A DNA stretch of 64,000 nucleotides, from contig OZ242184.1 in assembly GCA_965205855.1 (NCBI GenBank), positions 1,312,001 to 1,376,000 on the forward strand, written 5' to 3'. The stretch is from Thermodesulfobacteriota bacterium. Its GTDB lineage: Bacteria; Desulfobacterota_D; UBA1144; Nemesobacterales; Mycalebacteriaceae. The notes below the pieces were generated by a model. That model saw only the letters and a list, made by a program, of their open reading frames with translations. It was not told where the DNA came from and did not search any database. How positions within the stretch are numbered: the first letter of the stretch is position 1; the number at the start of each line of letters is the position of its first letter. The position numbers and the translations under genes were made by a program. This document shows positions 12,195 through 19,860 of this stretch, piece after piece.

Positions 12195-13054
12195 AAGTCT
12201 CAAAAACACCGGCGGGCGTAACGGGTTTGTTCGGCATTTTCGGACATCCCGTGCGACACAGTCGCTCTCCCAACATGCACAACGCCGCTTTTTCCGCCCT
12301 TGGAATGAACTGCATCTATCTGGCTTTTGACATTCTTCCCGAACTGGTCAAACCCGCCGTTGAATCTTTGCGGGCGCTCTCAATACGCGGAGTCAACATA
12401 ACCGTCCCGCACAAACAGGCGGTCATGCGGGAAATGGATTTTCTCGCCCCGTCCGCCGAGCTTGCGGGCGCGGTCAATACTGTTAAAAATCAAAACGGCC
12501 GGCTTGAGGGACACAATACCGATATTGAAGGCGCTCTCAAAGCGCTTGATGTTTCAATGGGTTTCCGGCCGGGGGGAAAAACCGCCCTTGTCATAGGAGC
12601 GGGCGGAGCCGCAAGGGCTTTGCTGTCTGGGCTTTGCATGGAAAACGCGACAATGGTTTTTATCGCAAACAGAACACCGGCAAAAGCGGAAAACCTTGTG
12701 AATGAGTTTGCGGGGAAATTCACAAAAACACGGGTGGAATATTCGGGTCTTGAAGGTGCGGAAATACTGAATAGTGCTCGCCGCGCAGACATCATAATCA
12801 ACTGCTCGTCCGGTGGGATGGAGGGAAACACGCCGCTTGAAATTCCCCTTGAGGAATTCGGCGGGGAATTCGGGGTTTACGACCTTGTTTACAAACCGCG
12901 CGAAACCCCTCTTGTCGCAAGAGCGCGGGAACTCGGAATAAAGGCGGAGTCGGGAATTGATATGTTGCTATATCAGGGAGCAAAATCATTTGAGATTTGG
13001 ACCGGGAAGGAAGCTCCGATTGAGACCATGAAAAAAGCCCTGGCCGGAGGTTGA
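12191..13054 (+). CDS. aroE: Shikimate dehydrogenase
   Basis: HSRSPNMHN, NITVPHK, GAVNT, NTD, GAGGAA. Confidence 0.96.
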   Translation: MKVSKTPAGVTGLFGIFGHPVRHSRSPNMHNAAFSALGMNCIYLAFDILPELVKPAVESLRALSIRGVNITVPHKQAVMREMDFLAPSAELAGAVNTVKNQNGRLEGHNTDIEGALKALDVSMGFRPGGKTALVIGAGGAARALLSGLCMENATMVFIANRTPAKAENLVNEFAGKFTKTRVEYSGLEGAEILNSARRADIIINCSSGGMEGNTPLEIPLEEFGGEFGVYDLVYKPRETPLVARARELGIKAESGIDMLLYQGAKSFEIWTGKEAPIETMKKALAGG

Positions 13055-13059
13055 AAAAA

Positions 13060-13806
13060 ATGGCACAAAGCACTCTTTTGATTTACGAACCCCTTGGCTC
13101 ACTTCCGGGTGCGGAATACTGGAAGCAATACATAGAGTTCTACGAGAAGTTTTGGGACAGACCCGCTTCTCACAAATCAGCATGGTGGGGAGCGGAATAC
13201 GATGAATTCAGAAAATCCTTTGCAAACAGCCTCAATATCGGCACGGACGAAATAAGGAACTGTTTTTTTACAAAAAAAGACGCCGATTATTTTGTGTGTC
13301 GTCTGGGCGACGAGTCAGGTTTCAATATCATTTCATCCGAAAACGACATTCCGTTTGAATGGCTTGCGGCTTTTGACGAAAAAAAGCGCGATTTCTTCTA
13401 CACGCATGTCGGCTTCGGAGCCGTTCATCATGACTCAATCTACTATACGGAAAAAATAGGAAAAGCAATGGAAAGAATAGAAGCCGCCGGCAAATTTCTC
13501 GGGCGAATAGAAGAAGCGGTTTCCAAGTATCCCGTCCTTGAAAAATTAAGGGAGCTACCCGCGAAAGCAGCGGATATGAACAGTTGGTTGCGCGGTTTCA
13601 ACCCGGAAGGGGAAATAGTTTTAAACTACGGCGAAATATGCTCCTTTATAACCCGAGACTCAATGAAAAACGAGAACTCCGTAGGCGACTTGAAAAGGAT
13701 AATCGCAAGTGTGGACAAGGGCGACTTTGAAAAAGCGGAGTCCGATTTGAAACTCTTGAACGCCAAATGGGACGAGATAAAAAGCGCGATTCACAGGAGC
13801 GGTTAG
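13060..13806 (+). CDS. Hypothetical protein
   Basis: About 250-aa ORF with GGAGG upstream, operonic with aroE; start TTG 13051 or ATG 13060. Confidence 0.75.
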   Translation: MAQSTLLIYEPLGSLPGAEYWKQYIEFYEKFWDRPASHKSAWWGAEYDEFRKSFANSLNIGTDEIRNCFFTKKDADYFVCRLGDESGFNIISSENDIPFEWLAAFDEKKRDFFYTHVGFGAVHHDSIYYTEKIGKAMERIEAAGKFLGRIEEAVSKYPVLEKLRELPAKAADMNSWLRGFNPEGEIVLNYGEICSFITRDSMKNENSVGDLKRIIASVDKGDFEKAESDLKLLNAKWDEIKSAIHRSG

Positions 13807-13842: not shown

Positions 13843-14679
13843 TTGAAAGCCTTCTGCCTCGCGAAAGACAGCATAGAGAGAAACTTGGAATCGTTCTTTA
13901 AAGAAAACGGTTACTACATTCTCTCCCAACGGCTGTTTGAAGACAAGCTTAGAGGCGGTTTTTTTATAAGAACGGCGTTCAACTCGGAGCGGGGCGAAGA
14001 GGAAATTGAGAAAATACGTGACGGATTTTCCCGCGCAGTGGCCGAGAAATTCGGCATGGAATGGGGGATTTACGACCCGCTCAAGCCGTTCAAGGTTATG
14101 ATTATGGTCTCAAAACTTGACCACTGCCTGAGGGATTTGCTTTACAGGTGCGAAACCGGACGCCTGCCGATGGAAATAACCGCCGTTGTTTCCAACCACA
14201 ATAATTTGCGCGAATATGTTGAAAATAAGGGAATAAAGTACATTCACCTGCCCGTCAGCAAAGAGACAAAGCCGCAACAGGAAGCGAAGCTTTTGAAAAT
14301 CATCAAAAAGACGGATACGGAACTTGTTGTGCTTGCGCGTTACATGCAGATTTTCTCCGCCGAAACCGCGGAAAAACTTTATGGAAGATGCATAAACATA
14401 CACCACTCGCTGCTACCGGCGTTCAAGGGCCCGAAGGCCTATCATCAGGCATACAAATACGGAGTGAAAGTTGTCGGCGCGACTGCGCACTATGTGACTG
14501 AAGATCTGGACGAAGGACCGGTAATTGAGCAATGGTCAACCCGTGTTGACCACACTAAAATGCCCGAAGACTTAAAAAAAATCGCAACAGAAAACGAACG
14601 AGAAGTCCTCGCAAAAGCGGTCAGATACCATATTGAACACCGCATATTCATTGACGGAAGAAGAACGGTTATTTTGTAG
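13843..14679 (+). CDS. purU: Formyltetrahydrofolate deformylase
   Basis: VSKLDHCL, VLARYMQI, INIHHSLLPAFKG, TAHYVTEDLDEGP; start uncertain. Confidence 0.93.
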   Translation: MKAFCLAKDSIERNLESFFKENGYYILSQRLFEDKLRGGFFIRTAFNSERGEEEIEKIRDGFSRAVAEKFGMEWGIYDPLKPFKVMIMVSKLDHCLRDLLYRCETGRLPMEITAVVSNHNNLREYVENKGIKYIHLPVSKETKPQQEAKLLKIIKKTDTELVVLARYMQIFSAETAEKLYGRCINIHHSLLPAFKGPKAYHQAYKYGVKVVGATAHYVTEDLDEGPVIEQWSTRVDHTKMPEDLKKIATENEREVLAKAVRYHIEHRIFIDGRRTVIL

Positions 14680-14699
14680 GGAAGATAAACCCGAACGGT

Positions 14700-15119
14700 T
14701 TATTTGTTTTTCAGCAACTTCACAAGAAGATTCAGTTTTCTTTTAAGAATCCGTTCATCTTTGAGTTCACACTCCCATATCCGTAATGTATTCCATCCCA
14801 TACTTTTAACTGTTTTATCCACAATCCTGTCGCGCTTTTTATTTGCACCTATCTTTTTAACCCAGAACTCTTTGTTATTTGTGGGGACTTGACCATGCCT
14901 TGGACAGTCATGCCAGAAACACCCGTCAACAAAAACCGCCACCTTACATTTTGGAAAAGTAATATCTGGTTTGCCAAAAATTGGATATTTCCGGCGCCAG
15001 CCAGTCAGGCAATTTTGCTTTAATATATCAATCAGTTTTCCTTCGGTTGATTTGTTTCCTGTGGACCTTACCCTCGCCATAAGCCACGATCTTTTTTCTT
15101 TGGTATAGATGTCAACCAT
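14700..15119 (-). CDS. vsr: Very short patch repair endonuclease
   Basis: D-x-KEKRS-xM, GKPD, FVDGCFWH, FWxxKI-xN-xxRD, IWEC; ATG 15119 overlaps the upstream stop. Confidence 0.95.
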   Translation of the reverse strand: MVDIYTKEKRSWLMARVRSTGNKSTEGKLIDILKQNCLTGWRRKYPIFGKPDITFPKCKVAVFVDGCFWHDCPRHGQVPTNNKEFWVKKIGANKKRDRIVDKTVKSMGWNTLRIWECELKDERILKRKLNLLVKLLKNK

Positions 15120-16757
15120 TGATTTGTGAGTCATCAAGTTGACACAGGAGAAATGAAATCAAACTCAAGATATTTAAGCAATCTTTTCTCTTAAACGGCA
15201 AACTATCAACCGGAGTGTGAGCTGCCAAATTTCTAAATCCTTGAAAGAGACCAACCGAAAGAGAGCATTGACCTTTTTGCATATTGATTTCGTTCCTACT
15301 GGACAGCTTTGAAATTTGAACTTTCGGATGGTTAGTTATGTCAAATTTACCGTTTTTAAATTCATAAACGACATTAAAAGCTTTCCTCATCATATCGACA
15401 TCACTCTTATATTCACCATCCATTTTTCCTTTAACCTCACTGGCATAGATTTTTACCCTTCAGTTGCAGCTTCCGGGTATTGTTCATTTTCATAATATTC
15501 CTTCAGTCTATCTTTTATTTTTGGGTGCAGATGGTGCCAATGATAGCGTGCATAATGTGAAGTAATCCCGTATAATTTTTTGGTAAATTCCGTTGCTATG
15601 TCAGTTTCAATTTCAGGAATATCTTTAATGTCTTCCAACAACTGAATGACTATATTGTCCATGGGAGACGGAACCGAACCGAGCCAGCCTTTTATATCGT
15701 GTATATTTTGAATGGTTTCGTTTTTTATATTTCTGCGCTTTTCACGCCAACCCCTTTGAATAGATTGAACACATTTTCGAATATATTCATGTAAGTTGTT
15801 AGCTTCCGCATCACCCCAAGTTATACTTTGTCTGTTAGTAGAGATAACATCTTCTGAAAAATCTTCTATAAAATCAACGTGTAAAAATCCACTCAAATAT
15901 GAAAAGAAATGACTGGATGTTCCCTCGGAAAATTGATAGGGTGTTTGAACAAGTTTTCCTCTGGAAAACAAAGAAATGCCACGTGCGTTAAATCTTGGAG
16001 CAATTGGTTTTCTGGTCGTGATAACTTTTCCTTTAATTTCCATTCTGTGCTTGTATTGAGGATCAATATCAACAAAATCATCAGGAAACTCCCAAGAGAA
16101 TTCCTGTTCAAATCCATCAAAGCGCATTTCGTTTGTTAATTGATTTTCTTTATTATTGTTATATCTAAAGGTGACGGTAAATTCTTCATCAAAAATAAAA
16201 AATTTTGCTATACTTTGAGCCAAACTTTCTTCTGAAAAATCAGATTCCCTTTTTATATTTTCCAAAGTTATTTCCGTACCGAATTCACTTTCTTGGGCGG
16301 GCTGATCCAGTGCAATTGGATTTATAACGTAGTCCCCGTCCGCACTCATTAAGCTATTCCAATCCATGGAAAATTCGTTTCTAATGCTATCTTTGACGGT
16401 TCTTACCGTAATCGTTTGGACAATCCCAAAAAATGAAAGTTTCCCCAAACCTTTTTTGCCAATGACTCTTCTACCTCTCGGAGTCAAACCTTCTTCTTCA
16501 TCCCTGCGGTTTCTCCCAATAACAAGAAACTTACTTCTAATACAATCTGAAGACATACCTATTCCGTTGTCTCTCACGACTATTCTTTTGTTTTCATCCG
16601 TATCATGAAGTTCTATCTCAACTCTTGTGGCATCGGCATCATAGGAATTGGCTACCAGCTCACTCAAAACCGGAGGAAGAGTCGAATACATACGAACCCC
16701 AAGGTGTTCTATGGTCTTAGGGTCAAATTTCATTACAAAATTGTTTTGTCCGTTCAT
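15112..16757 (-). pseudogene. GHKL/MORC-like ATPase fused to TIGR02391 (Ymh/HEPN-like) domain, split by a 1-nt frameshift near 15455
   Basis: ELVANSYDA, DNGIGM, GKKGLGK GHKL boxes; reads GAA GGG TAA, and one extra G restores EGVKIYASEVKGKMDG into the 15112-15423 frame containing GFRNLAAH. Confidence 0.8.
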
Positions 16758-16767
16758 AATACTGCCT

Positions 16768-17073
16768 TCAATAACCACAGACAGACTTGGCTATTCTATA
16801 TGCAAGTTGTGGGGGAACCGCATTACCTATTAATTTGGTTACAACCATAGAACTGTTGGATTGAAACTTATAATTTTCAAATGTTTGCAATGCCGCGCCT
16901 TCCCTGAGAGACAATCCTCTATGTTCTGTGGGATGTGCAAAGCGACCATTGGAAATTCCGCTAAATCTTGTTGTTAGAGTTGAAGCGGGTTTTTTCCACC
17001 TTAGTCTACCGTACACATCTTTGAAACAATTATCCCTTCCCCGATAGGCTCGAAGTTGGAGATTAGGGAGGAC
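16768..17073 (-). pseudogene. C-terminal remnant of a C5-cytosine DNA methyltransferase
   Basis: YGRLRWKKPASTLTT, HP-EHR-LSLREGAALQTF (motif IX), IGNAVPP (motif X); motifs I-VIII absent and an in-frame stop at 17074-17076. Confidence 0.88.
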
Positions 17074-18859
17074 TTACTTTTATGCGAAATATTCCATTAC
17101 GTAAAGATCCTGAATTTGGCAATACATCAGGTGTGGGATGCACAAATTCACCTTGATTGGCGTCTCGTATTAGATAGTCATTTTCGGCGTCCGTCTTACA
17201 CCGGATCCACCTGTAAGAGTTGATGGGTATACTTTTTATGTCGTCCTTCTCTAAATTTATTGGCTTTAAGTATGTTGGGAATATTTTCCCTTTGTATATT
17301 TCCTCGCCCCCGGGCATTTGGGTCTGATCCATAACAATATCTCCAAAACCAAAAAGCTCCTGAAGATCAGGATTATTCTTGACAAGATTAGAAAGGAATT
17401 CCTTGCTGGATTCTTTCTCGATTTGTTCACTTTGGCGACGAAGTTTTATTTCTCGCGCATATTTTTTTAGTTCCCCGTCCTCTTTCAGGGAGTTTATAAC
17501 AATTTCCTTTAATTCCCTGGTCAATTCTATTTTTGCCATTCTTTCCCGGTCCGGCTTAAATACTGCGGAACGTGCCGTATTATCCATGGCATTACAGTCA
17601 ATTTGAACAAGGAGGTGATTTCTTAAATCATCAAGTTTTGCCTTTCCCAGAAAGCTGGCTCTCTCTTTGGCTTGAGATTGACCGTTGATTGTATAGAACA
17701 TTCTATATGGATGGTTACGCAGATAGTCTTTCATAGCGTCCAATACAAAATAAGATATGCGAATAGTTCCCAAGCTGAAATTCTCTGAATTTTCAACCAC
17801 GCCCTCAAAATCGACTTTGCTTGTTTCATCTTCATTATCATCGGATTTGAGTACCGTTTTCATGCCTGAAAAAGTCCTTGGTGCTATACCTTCCGATCTA
17901 AGACCAACCTTTGTTGGTTTCGCATCAAAGTCATAAAGACGAAGAGGCAAGGCACAGTCGATAAGGTTCGTCGTAAGCGCGTCATATAGACCTATGTCAA
18001 CCGCACGGGCCCCGGGGCCTATGTCATATTCATACAATTTCACAACGCTGCCTTCGTGAATAACCCCGATGTCTTCTCTATCAAAGACTTTTATTTCATC
18101 AGACTTAAAGCAAGCAATTTTACCACTGGGACAAAAATACTCGACCACCGGTAATTCTTCTCTTTTGCGAACCCCCCTCACTCTTATGAGAGTCCAGCCC
18201 CATAATCCGTCTGATTCGGATGTGGTTCTTTTGGAAAGAACAAATTTGTACATCCCTTTCCTAATTTCGCCCCGAGTGCAAAAAGTTATGGATCCGGTGC
18301 TACCCATGTTAAAACGACCTTGAACAAATGGTATCCCCTCTTTGTTTTTTTCTCCGAGAGACAAGAAAGTTTTTTCAAAATCCCCATGATTCTGACCTTC
18401 GCCGAAATCAACTATCGTATAATTGGGGAATTTATCCCTCTTGACTTTCCGCTTAACTCCTATCAGAACACACTTTTCAGCCAGTGCCGTTCTTTGCCCT
18501 TGACTCAGCAACGTCAATTTTCCTTCATGCACTTCGGGAAAAAATAATTTGACCGCTTCACTCATACTTCGGGGGAGCGTTTCGCTTTCAAAATTCAACC
18601 CTTTTTCCTTAGCCTTCCGCATAAGGATTGCATCAATAGAGTTAATAATCAGTTCTGCAAGCGCACCGACTGGTTCACTGGTTTGAACACCAACTCTGTC
18701 CCAATTCTTTTCAGCGCCGCCATAGGGCCTCCAATTTTCATCATCAGCAAATTCCGCCTGATCGATTAAAATTCGTTCAACTTCCTCGGTAGACATAGCA
18801 CGAAGAAGATGTTCCGCCGTTGATTTGGAAAGGTTACTGTTGGAAAATTTACTTGGCAT
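17063..18859 (-). CDS. Divergent GHKL-type ATPase of unknown function, probably C-terminally truncated
   Basis: ALAELIINSIDA, DFGEG, QGRFNMGSTG; ends abruptly at the junction with the MTase remnant. Confidence 0.75.
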   Translation of the reverse strand: MPSKFSNSNLSKSTAEHLLRAMSTEEVERILIDQAEFADDENWRPYGGAEKNWDRVGVQTSEPVGALAELIINSIDAILMRKAKEKGLNFESETLPRSMSEAVKLFFPEVHEGKLTLLSQGQRTALAEKCVLIGVKRKVKRDKFPNYTIVDFGEGQNHGDFEKTFLSLGEKNKEGIPFVQGRFNMGSTGSITFCTRGEIRKGMYKFVLSKRTTSESDGLWGWTLIRVRGVRKREELPVVEYFCPSGKIACFKSDEIKVFDREDIGVIHEGSVVKLYEYDIGPGARAVDIGLYDALTTNLIDCALPLRLYDFDAKPTKVGLRSEGIAPRTFSGMKTVLKSDDNEDETSKVDFEGVVENSENFSLGTIRISYFVLDAMKDYLRNHPYRMFYTINGQSQAKERASFLGKAKLDDLRNHLLVQIDCNAMDNTARSAVFKPDRERMAKIELTRELKEIVINSLKEDGELKKYAREIKLRRQSEQIEKESSKEFLSNLVKNNPDLQELFGFGDIVMDQTQMPGGEEIYKGKIFPTYLKPINLEKDDIKSIPINSYRWIRCKTDAENDYLIRDANQGEFVHPTPDVLPNSGSLRNGIFRIKVSPP

Positions 18860-18905
18860 TGCTTAACAATAAAGAATGAGAAATCTGGAACAGGGTAGCA
18901 TTGGA

Positions 18906-19457
18906 TTACTTTACAATCAAACCCTCAACAACCTCTTCAAACCGCTTTGCTCTTTCCTGTCCGATATGGGTTTCCCCTATCATTTTATAAACAATTTTGC
19001 CACTACGGTCCACAATGTAGAAAGCGGGCCAGTAACGGTTTTGCATCTTTCTCCAGTATTTGAAATCATTGTCCATCATTACGGGATGGGTGAGATTGAA
19101 CTCCCTGACTTTCCCCTCCAGATTTTTTCTGCTTTTCTCGCGTTCAAACTCCGGCGTGTGTATTCCTATCACCCGAATTTCGCTGTTTGCAAAACGTTTT
19201 TCCATTTTCAAAAGCCAAGGGAAAGAACGGTAGGAATTCCAGCAGTCAAAAGCCCAGAAATACACAACGGTAACCTTGTTTTTAAGAGAGGACTTTTCAA
19301 GCGGCTCCGAGTTGAGCCAGTCTTTCTGCAGCGATGAGGTGAATTCCGGCAATTTGCGCGAAATAAAACCGTCCGCATGCGCGGGCGCGCCTCCGAATAC
19401 CGCGCACGCAAGAAAAAATATTGACGCAAGCAGAGATGTAATTCCGGTTTTTTTCAT
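18906..19457 (-). CDS. Exported redoxin (DipZ/TlpA-like thioredoxin fold), CxxS
   Basis: Signal peptide MKKTG...AHA, FWAFDCWNS, IGIHTPEF, NRYWPA. Confidence 0.85.
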   Translation of the reverse strand: MKKTGITSLLASIFFLACAVFGGAPAHADGFISRKLPEFTSSLQKDWLNSEPLEKSSLKNKVTVVYFWAFDCWNSYRSFPWLLKMEKRFANSEIRVIGIHTPEFEREKSRKNLEGKVREFNLTHPVMMDNDFKYWRKMQNRYWPAFYIVDRSGKIVYKMIGETHIGQERAKRFEEVVEGLIVK

Positions 19458-19464
19458 AAGCAAC

Positions 19465-19860
19465 CTACGGAAGAAACCTATCGGAATGCTCCGGCGGCGG
19501 CAACCTGCATGAATCCAGATTTCCAAACCACCGGTAGCGGTTTGAGGCAATGCGGCGGTAAATTGAATCCCGTATAAATCCGGGGACATACATAAAAACT
19601 CCAAAAAGCGGCCAAGCCCCTCCGAGACCGGTGAGAATTTTTATTACCGCCGTGGAATCACGGCAGATTCCGTCTCTGTCCGAATAAAAAATGCTCCACT
19701 TGCGGAAATCATCCGGAAGCGGCGGCAACACTCCGGCCGCGGTCTCTCCCTGAACCGGAGAAAAAAGAAACTTTCGCTTGTGGTCTCTTTCCAGAATAAA
19801 ATCAACAAACCCGTTGCAAAAACCGCAAACGCCGTCAAAAAAAACCACACGCCTGTTCAC
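19465..19860 (-). CDS. DCC1-like thiol-disulfide oxidoreductase (DUF393)
   Basis: [22 protein letters not shown]. Confidence 0.9.

Follow-up and report, generated by a model that had tools for sequence, protein, structure and literature searches.

Among the closest described relatives of the system analyzed here are restriction enzymes and predicted nucleases built on GHKL ATPase modules. In the entries of Orlowski and Bujnicki (2008; PMC2441816) that concern these enzymes, R.HgiDII consists of a GHKL domain and an unassigned C-terminal domain, and R.NmeAIP stands for a putative REBASE family of 18 members in which a GHKL domain is joined to a C-terminal Hypoth_Ymh domain. The sections of Iyer, Abhiman, and Aravind (2008; PMC2292703) on gene neighborhoods place MORC genes with cytosine methylases and Vsr and without helicases, report in a subset of these loci a further GHKL family, 'paraMORC1', whose members have a conserved C-terminal extension, propose for MORCs a role in DNA looping in restriction–modification (R-M) systems, and cite a functional link between MutL and Vsr. 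In the passages of Anantharaman et al. (2013; PMC3710099) on Ymh, this domain is classed as HEPN and described as fused to the C-terminus of paraMORC proteins in R-M neighborhoods, with a PrrC/RloC-like RNase role proposed for the paraMORC–Ymh fusion. The part of PMC4676702 on M.NmeAI describes an active C5mCGG methylase, and a 2026 preprint, where it touches on prokaryotic MORC and paraMORC proteins, still terms their roles 'proposed'. Here, we analyze a 4.2-kb island that carries the remains of such a system in a 64,000-nucleotide window of the genome of a Thermodesulfobacteriota bacterium (assembly GCA_965205855.1, contig OZ242184.1, positions 1,312,001 to 1,376,000); coordinates below are those of the window unless a locus is named. 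The island contains sequences of four gene families: a GHKL ATPase of ~780 residues (A780), a C5-cytosine methyltransferase (C5-MTase), a GHKL ATPase with a C-terminal Ymh domain (GHKL-Ymh), and vsr.

We conclude, with a probability of roughly 85%, that the window holds a recently pseudogenized relic of a horizontally acquired, composite R-M-like cassette based on 5-methylcytosine (5mC), which in its intact form has one C5-MTase serving two separable R-like GHKL ATPases. An initial annotation of this DNA, made from its letters alone, had described a candidate uncharacterized defense system. PADLOC indeed has no model that names the cassette beyond generic Type II R-M parts, but the design is in print, as far as the passages cited above extend (PMC2441816, PMC3710099, PMC2292703). 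The parts of the cassette have thus been predicted already, and the window carries a dead copy of a known, putative kind of system.

Results

A deletion and a frameshift disable the cassette

The initial annotation saw a tightly coupled, AT-rich operon on the minus strand, and this description holds: the five minus-strand open reading frames (ORFs) of the island are closely packed or overlapping (Table 1), and the GC content is 0.36–0.44 from 14500 to 19000 compared to ~0.45–0.54 in the flanks. The vsr gene was also read correctly, with a TIGR00632 score above the cut-off; it overlaps the end of the Ymh frame and is the only whole gene of the cassette in the window.

The upstream gene, annotated as a divergent GHKL ATPase, has the GHKL+S5 fold as judged from its 86%-identical homologue P0122, but it is cut short at codon ~598 of ~780. 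Its 598-aa ORF gives a weak HATPase_c_3 match only (E 0.0099) and aligns to residues 1–595 of the 778 residues of P0122. What had been called a Dcm-like MTase is a C-terminal remnant that aligns to residues 248–344 of the 350-residue MTase of locus L007, one of the close intact loci described below, and lacks both motif I (binding of S-adenosylmethionine) and motif IV (PCQ, catalytic); intact homologues cover PF00145 positions 2–322. Elsewhere in the host genome (1.40 Mb in one contig, 98% complete), PF00145 has no match and A780 no further copy. Homology to A780 stops at 17075 and homology to the MTase begins at 17067, within 9 bp, and comparison with the coordinates of locus L001 puts ~1283 bp as missing at the junction. 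As these alignments indicate, a single ~1.28-kb deletion took the last ~180 residues of A780, with all of its helical tail and part of an Ig-like domain, together with residues 1 to ~248 of the MTase.

The next gene, GHKL-Ymh, had been annotated as a MORC–HEPN fusion. Its GHKL and Ymh domains are those of homologues of ~553 aa, which carry both in one polypeptide, but in the window the two domains are split between two frames. The 441-aa ORF is 60% identical to residues 1–438 of the 553 residues of homologue P0001, and in a tblastn search with P0001 the frame changes exactly at the G-run listed in Table 1, between residues 438 and 439; the shifted frame contains an Rx4H motif, RNLAAH, at 15217–15234. 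Programmed frameshifting at the G-run was rejected, as there is no slippery heptamer of the form X XXY YYZ and the methylase is deleted anyway. The initial annotation had found no recognizable restriction endonuclease, which proved incorrect: the 441-aa ORF matches NF050001, the BbrUII/HgiDII family of restriction enzymes, over profile positions 1–404 of 659 (E 7e-66), with 223 bits against a curated cut-off of 550 bits, and also matches the REase_II models of PADLOC (E 6e-32).

To compare the window with other data, we used Logan contigs from sequencing runs X1 and X2 (both from one study but from different samples, and one of them possibly the source of the assembly), X4 (another study), and X5. 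The X1 and X2 contigs cover 14500–19100 with no differences from the window, both lesions included, and an X4 contig covers 15129–16138 with no differences, including the frameshift; the deletion junction lies outside the coverage of the X4 and X5 contigs. Because contigs from three runs (X1, X2, and X4) agree, we rejected a sequencing or assembly error as the source of the frameshift. Within the A780 gene (18225–18421), 27 of 197 positions of one X4 contig disagree with the window, and the other X4 contigs are identical to it; a second, diverged allele of this gene or a relative's copy therefore exists in the X4 sample.

The decay appears recent because the window sequences keep 111 of 114 covered conserved columns in GHKL-Ymh, 126 of 127 in A780, and 31 of 32 in the MTase remnant. 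The system cannot work here because the deletion destroyed the methylase and A780, and the one-base frameshift destroyed GHKL-Ymh. The functional system proposed initially, with a HEPN RNase that is controlled in this organism by an ATPase clamp responding to methylation state, would fit the presence of all four gene families in operon-like order and the retention of nearly all conserved residues by the surviving ORFs. We nevertheless regard it as scarcely credible: the methylase has lost its catalytic motifs and has no C5-MTase elsewhere in the genome to replace it, A780 has lost its tail, GHKL-Ymh is frameshifted inside Ymh, and the lesions are reproduced in independent contigs. Loss of the methylase together with the disabling of both R-like genes is the pattern expected for an R-M-like system that decays without killing its host.

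Table 1. Coordinates of the island and of the features within it.
Feature	Positions	Strand	Description
Inserted island	14680-18905	-	Between purU (13843-14679, +) and a thioredoxin-like gene (18906-19604, -)
vsr, apparently intact	14700-15137	-	TIGR00632, 110.2 bits (cut-off 97.85), profile 1-119 of 119; PF03852, E 2e-17
103-aa ORF	15112-15423	-	Second half of Hypoth_Ymh (PF09509 positions 55-119 of 119, E 1.6e-11); TIGR02391, E 1.1e-12
Rest of Ymh (putative HEPN-type) domain, shifted frame	15115-15459	-	Aligns to P0001 residues 439-547
Frameshift site in G-run	15456-15459	-	G-run one base shorter than the frame of homologues needs
GHKL-S5 part and first ~30 residues of Ymh, 441 aa	15453-16778	-	PF13589 (HATPase_c_3), E 2.9e-23; ends at premature TAA
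82-aa ORF within MTase remnant	16768-17016	-	Open frame reaches 17073
C5-MTase C-terminal remnant, ~100 codons	16771-17073	-	PF00145 positions 263-322 of 324, E 1.8e-10
Deletion junction CCTCCC	17066-17071	-	Fuses A780 codon ~598 to MTase codon ~249
Truncated A780 gene, 598 aa	17063-18859	-	Residues 1 to ~598 of ~780

The island is an insertion

In G001, a genome of the same genus, the gap between purU and the thioredoxin-like gene is ~44 bp (locus L098) and the island is absent. Because this site is empty in G001, we conclude that the 4.2-kb island is an insertion; G001 carries an intact cassette at another site. Outside the island, a 251-aa ORF of unknown function (13051–13806, between aroE and purU) is syntenic in three genomes of the same genus, with 65–71% identity.

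GHKL-Ymh resembles a restriction enzyme with an exchanged C-terminus

Homologues of GHKL-Ymh are numerous (2329 database matches, ~553 aa), and among the 120 listed, 118 contain both PF13589 and PF09509. In GHKL-Ymh, GHKL motifs I–III are invariant. The initial annotation had assigned the C-terminal domain to Ymh with an RNase-type motif; the profiles agree on Ymh, and the Rx4H motif is conserved, with R in 93% and H in 99% of 118 homologues. The RNase activity and abortive infection also envisaged there remain predictions.

The intact GHKL-Ymh of L007 scores 223.5 bits against NF050001, over profile positions 2–411 of 659, and matches TIGR02391 over residues 409–532. True NF050001 members score 794 and 830 bits, are 661–665 aa long, adjoin C5-MTases, and have C-terminal parts with only faint PD-(D/E)xK hints. 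The NF050001 match of GHKL-Ymh thus ends at ~411 of 659 and is followed by Ymh; on profile evidence, Ymh therefore sits where a genuine family of restriction enzymes has its own C-terminal domain. One true BbrUII/HgiDII-family system, on a Haloplanus plasmid (L095, 1–1103), stands beside an annotated Pycsar effector and a cyclase gene in a defense island.

Other searches gave generic results. The GHKL-Ymh profile matched only generic N-domains of Hsp90, HtpG, and MutL in the PDB, and its Ymh part matched nothing there at E ≤ 0.01. An intact homologue gave a weak match to PADLOC Aga_HEPN (E 8e-6), and the GHKL domain gave weak generic matches to MzaB (E ~6e-8 to 8e-7). Hma, Mza, and other named GHKL-containing systems were rejected as identities for the cassette, with these weak MzaB matches for GHKL-Ymh and no PADLOC match for A780.

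A780 is a GHKL+S5 ATPase with a C-terminal region of its own

Homologues of A780 are 760–813 aa long and up to 87% identical to the window ORF. The family comprises 1416 clusters (E ≤ 0.001) among 50%-identity representatives, contains no Pfam domain, and is matched by no Pfam, NCBIfam, or PADLOC model; its profile gave no match at E ≤ 1 in the PDB. A search of the ESM Atlas with homologue P0191 returned only clusters of 'hypothetical protein', some of them with HATPase_c_3 or Big_2.

In the predicted model of P0122 (mean pLDDT, the predicted local distance difference test score, 81.4), the first ~450 residues match Topo VI-B, Hsp90, GyrB, and MORC3/4 (Foldseek E 7e-12 to 1e-8), and GHKL motifs I–III (ExxxNxxDA, DxGxG, and a G-rich loop) are invariant in 30 homologues. 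On the model of this 86%-identical homologue, A780 is confirmed as a GHKL+S5 ATPase. Modeled alone, the C-terminal 273 residues of P0122 (pLDDT 85.5) form an Ig-like sandwich, a small alpha/beta unit, and long helices, with structural matches that are generic Ig-like only; no nuclease fold was seen in this model, in which the last ~140 residues were barely probed. A complex prediction for A780 residues 440–778 with its MTase returned 'no answer' (score 0.00), which is evidence neither way.

Intact cassettes share one methylase between two separable ATPases

We examined the eight loci with the closest full-length A780 (L001–L008). In seven of them the genes stand in the order A780, C5-MTase (its start overlapping the A780 stop), GHKL-Ymh, and Vsr, and tblastn found Vsr in all eight, split in L002. 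This neighborhood check shows that the four-gene combination of the initial annotation is a real, recurrent cassette and that the two ATPases do occur together elsewhere, so that the annotation is not refuted on this point. The eighth locus, L001 (9334–10937), is a natural deletion variant with A780, MTase, and Vsr and without GHKL-Ymh, in which Vsr follows directly after the MTase. The close intact cassettes lie in metagenome-assembled genomes (MAGs) labeled as Nitrospirales, Gammaproteobacteria, and Thermodesulfobacteriota. Because A780 remains 72–87% identical across MAGs of different phyla, the cassette appears to have spread horizontally in recent times. Several of these MAGs bear sponge-associated candidate names, and recent horizontal exchange of the cassette within one habitat is suggested.

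We then counted partners in two larger sets. The A780 set consisted of 83 non-redundant loci. To the 80 best-scoring of 232 confirmed relatives we added the eight close loci above and one distant match, and we left out eight loci that repeated a record or were the window's own; partners were counted within the fetched flank. The GHKL-Ymh set consisted of the best 80 of 442 confirmed relatives, with partners counted within 5 kb. A C5-MTase of the cassette type accompanies A780 at 26 of 83 loci, 12 of which have GHKL-Ymh (nine of these with Vsr) and 14 of which do not (eight with MTase and Vsr, six with MTase only); Vsr is found at 17 of the 83. GHKL-Ymh adjoins a C5-MTase at all 80 of its loci, Vsr at 33, and A780 at 10. 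Thus, the second GHKL partner of the initial annotation is present in the cassette but optional. A Neisseria gonorrhoeae record and a Burkholderia plasmid, for example, have MTase, GHKL-Ymh, and Vsr without A780. In an N. gonorrhoeae record (L092, 3002–6069; filed among plasmids and nearly unannotated), MTase and GHKL-Ymh are each in two frames and Vsr is whole; it is a second example of decay of the MTase/GHKL-Ymh module.

Because GHKL-Ymh occurs without A780 at 70 of 80 loci, and A780 with a C5-MTase occurs without GHKL-Ymh at 14 of 26, we conclude that the two ATPases, which co-occur, are separable modules sharing one methylase. GHKL ATPases function as dimers, and the two genes of the cassette are separated only by the MTase at seven of the eight close loci and have been co-transferred across phyla, so one could picture both proteins as halves of an obligate heteromeric clamp, a single machine. 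This arrangement is improbable given the same counts, the further 57 of 83 A780 loci with neither partner, and L001 with its A780–MTase–Vsr set.

The linkage also bears on a role for GHKL-Ymh as a PrrC/RloC-like back-up, that is, a latent RNase guarding the A780–MTase pair and firing when a phage disables the pair. This analogy was proposed in the cited part of PMC3710099, and the four-gene cassette does contain a second R-like protein to guard. At 70 of 80 loci, though, no further R candidate stands beside GHKL-Ymh, just a methylase and at some loci Vsr, and over its first 400 residues the protein shares homology with genuine restriction enzymes; we therefore consider a back-up role unlikely.

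At 57 of the 83 A780 loci we found none of C5-MTase, GHKL-Ymh, and Vsr. In 20 of these 57, a convergent N6/N4 methylase (PF01555) lies immediately downstream (for example, L038, 6826–8043), and other A780 loci adjoin DndB-like proteins, a Type I-like N6 methylase, GmrSD, or AbiEii. Distant A780 loci have either a DndB-like gene (PF14072; L036, 3322–4461, and L054, 1239–2495) or an unnamed gene of ~400 aa immediately upstream, and a PIN-domain gene lies upstream of A780 at seven loci. The combination of distant A780, DndB-like or unnamed gene, and convergent methylase looks like another unnamed modification-linked module.

These counts also speak to a reading in which the cassette is not a defense system at all but a mobile methylase with dedicated very-short-patch repair, its MutL-like ATPases assisting Vsr as MutL does in E. 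coli. The MutL–Vsr link cited in the relevant section of PMC2292703 and the presence of Vsr at 33 of 80 GHKL-Ymh and 17 of 83 A780 loci are in its favor. Against it, 47 of 80 GHKL-Ymh loci lack Vsr within 5 kb, the conserved Rx4H nuclease motif would have no role, A780 is also found with N6/N4 methylases, for which repair of deamination products has no relevance, and the GHKL module is related to restriction enzymes. We regard this reading as very improbable.

Discussion

The preferred reading, a dead copy of a composite 5mC R-M-like cassette, leads to a conditional picture of how the intact form would operate. The C5-MTase would mark host DNA and so protect host sites. GHKL-Ymh would combine a MORC/paraMORC-like GHKL+S5 module with Ymh/HEPN in place of the DNase-side C-terminus of its BbrUII/HgiDII relatives; it would recognize unmethylated target DNA, and ATP-driven dimerization would join two HEPN domains into a composite site, turning the nuclease on. 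RNA is the somewhat favored substrate of this predicted nuclease, with DNA nicking as the alternative. A780 might be a second sensor of methylation state or a clamp. Vsr has an established role beside C5-MTases in limiting 5mC-derived mutation, and here would repair T:G mismatches that arise from deamination of 5mC.

For A780, we tentatively entertain a bolder possibility, which we rate as less likely than not: the family may be a new class of methylation-linked restriction component without a known nuclease fold, which reads the state set by whichever methylase accompanies it (in C5, N6/N4, and DndB-like contexts) and, in the four-gene cassette, acts together with GHKL-Ymh or is backed up by it.

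Several points weigh against our conclusion that the cassette is a dead R-M-like system. The remaining ORFs are long and little degraded, and to judge from their sequences the truncated proteins or Vsr may keep residual activity. The linkage counts are those of the best-scoring 80 loci per scan, with some loci cut by contig ends. The assignment of Ymh to HEPN rests on Pfam/TIGRFAM membership, the Rx4H motif, and the 2013 classification. Finally, in the literature on TIGR02391, paraMORC-HEPN, and Ymh-HEPN defense we found no experimental paper on any member, and searches from 2014 onward for Ymh with HEPN and defense, and for TIGR02391, returned nothing; nuclease activity, substrate, and defense are thus predictions. 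A paper on WASA Vibrio was set aside, as it concerns a GHKL-Shedu protein and has no bearing on the locus.

As it stands, the locus documents the loss of a defense island in a small (1.4-Mb) genome, where two lesions were enough to inactivate the methylase together with the two R-like genes. 'Restriction' proteins of the GHKL-HEPN type abound and stand beside a C5-methylase at every locus examined, and the question at stake in the intact cassette is whether a sensor of the R-M kind can act through an RNase instead of a DNase. An intact system is therefore an attractive target, also for the role of the unnamed 780-aa family; the window cannot supply a working copy.

Comparison with known systems

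Resemblance to PD-Lambda-3 is confined to one domain. Its B component (PADLOC PDLC03987, PD-Lambda-3_B) shares a Ymh-type C-terminus with GHKL-Ymh, with E 1.8e-10 for the Ymh frame of the window (positions 194–264 of 270) and E 6.6e-12 for an intact homologue, but only the last ~70–110 of the 270 B positions match, and no other ORF of the locus matches any PD-Lambda-3 model, the A component included. PrrC and RloC, following the analogy drawn in the section of PMC3710099 on these fusions, are like GHKL-Ymh in joining an NTPase to a HEPN-type nuclease domain in R-M neighborhoods. They differ in having an ABC-type rather than a GHKL ATPase, and a separate restriction enzyme that could be guarded is missing from most GHKL-Ymh loci.

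The MORC/paraMORC neighborhoods, as the published descriptions in PMC2292703 portray them, resemble the cassette in their GHKL+S5 ATPases, cytosine methylases, and Vsr, and in having no helicase; paraMORC1 resembles A780 by verbal description only, as a second GHKL protein with a C-terminal extension. The BbrUII/HgiDII enzymes, which belong to GTCGAC systems with m5C methylases, share with GHKL-Ymh a homologous GHKL and middle region (profile positions 1–411) and a C5-MTase immediately upstream. GHKL-Ymh nevertheless falls outside this family, at 223 bits compared to the cut-off of 550, with profile positions 412–659 replaced by Ymh/HEPN. R.NmeAIP, itself putative and accompanied in Neisseria by M.NmeAI (C5mCGG) and a Vsr, has the architecture of the window family, an N-terminal GHKL domain and a C-terminal Hypoth_Ymh domain with an adjacent C5-MTase and Vsr, and the N. 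gonorrhoeae protein, encoded in the order MTase, GHKL-Ymh, Vsr, is 37% identical to the L007 GHKL-Ymh over residues 1–531. Compared to R.NmeAIP, the copy in the window is frameshifted, its methylase is deleted, and the cassette to which it belongs adds the upstream 780-aa GHKL gene.

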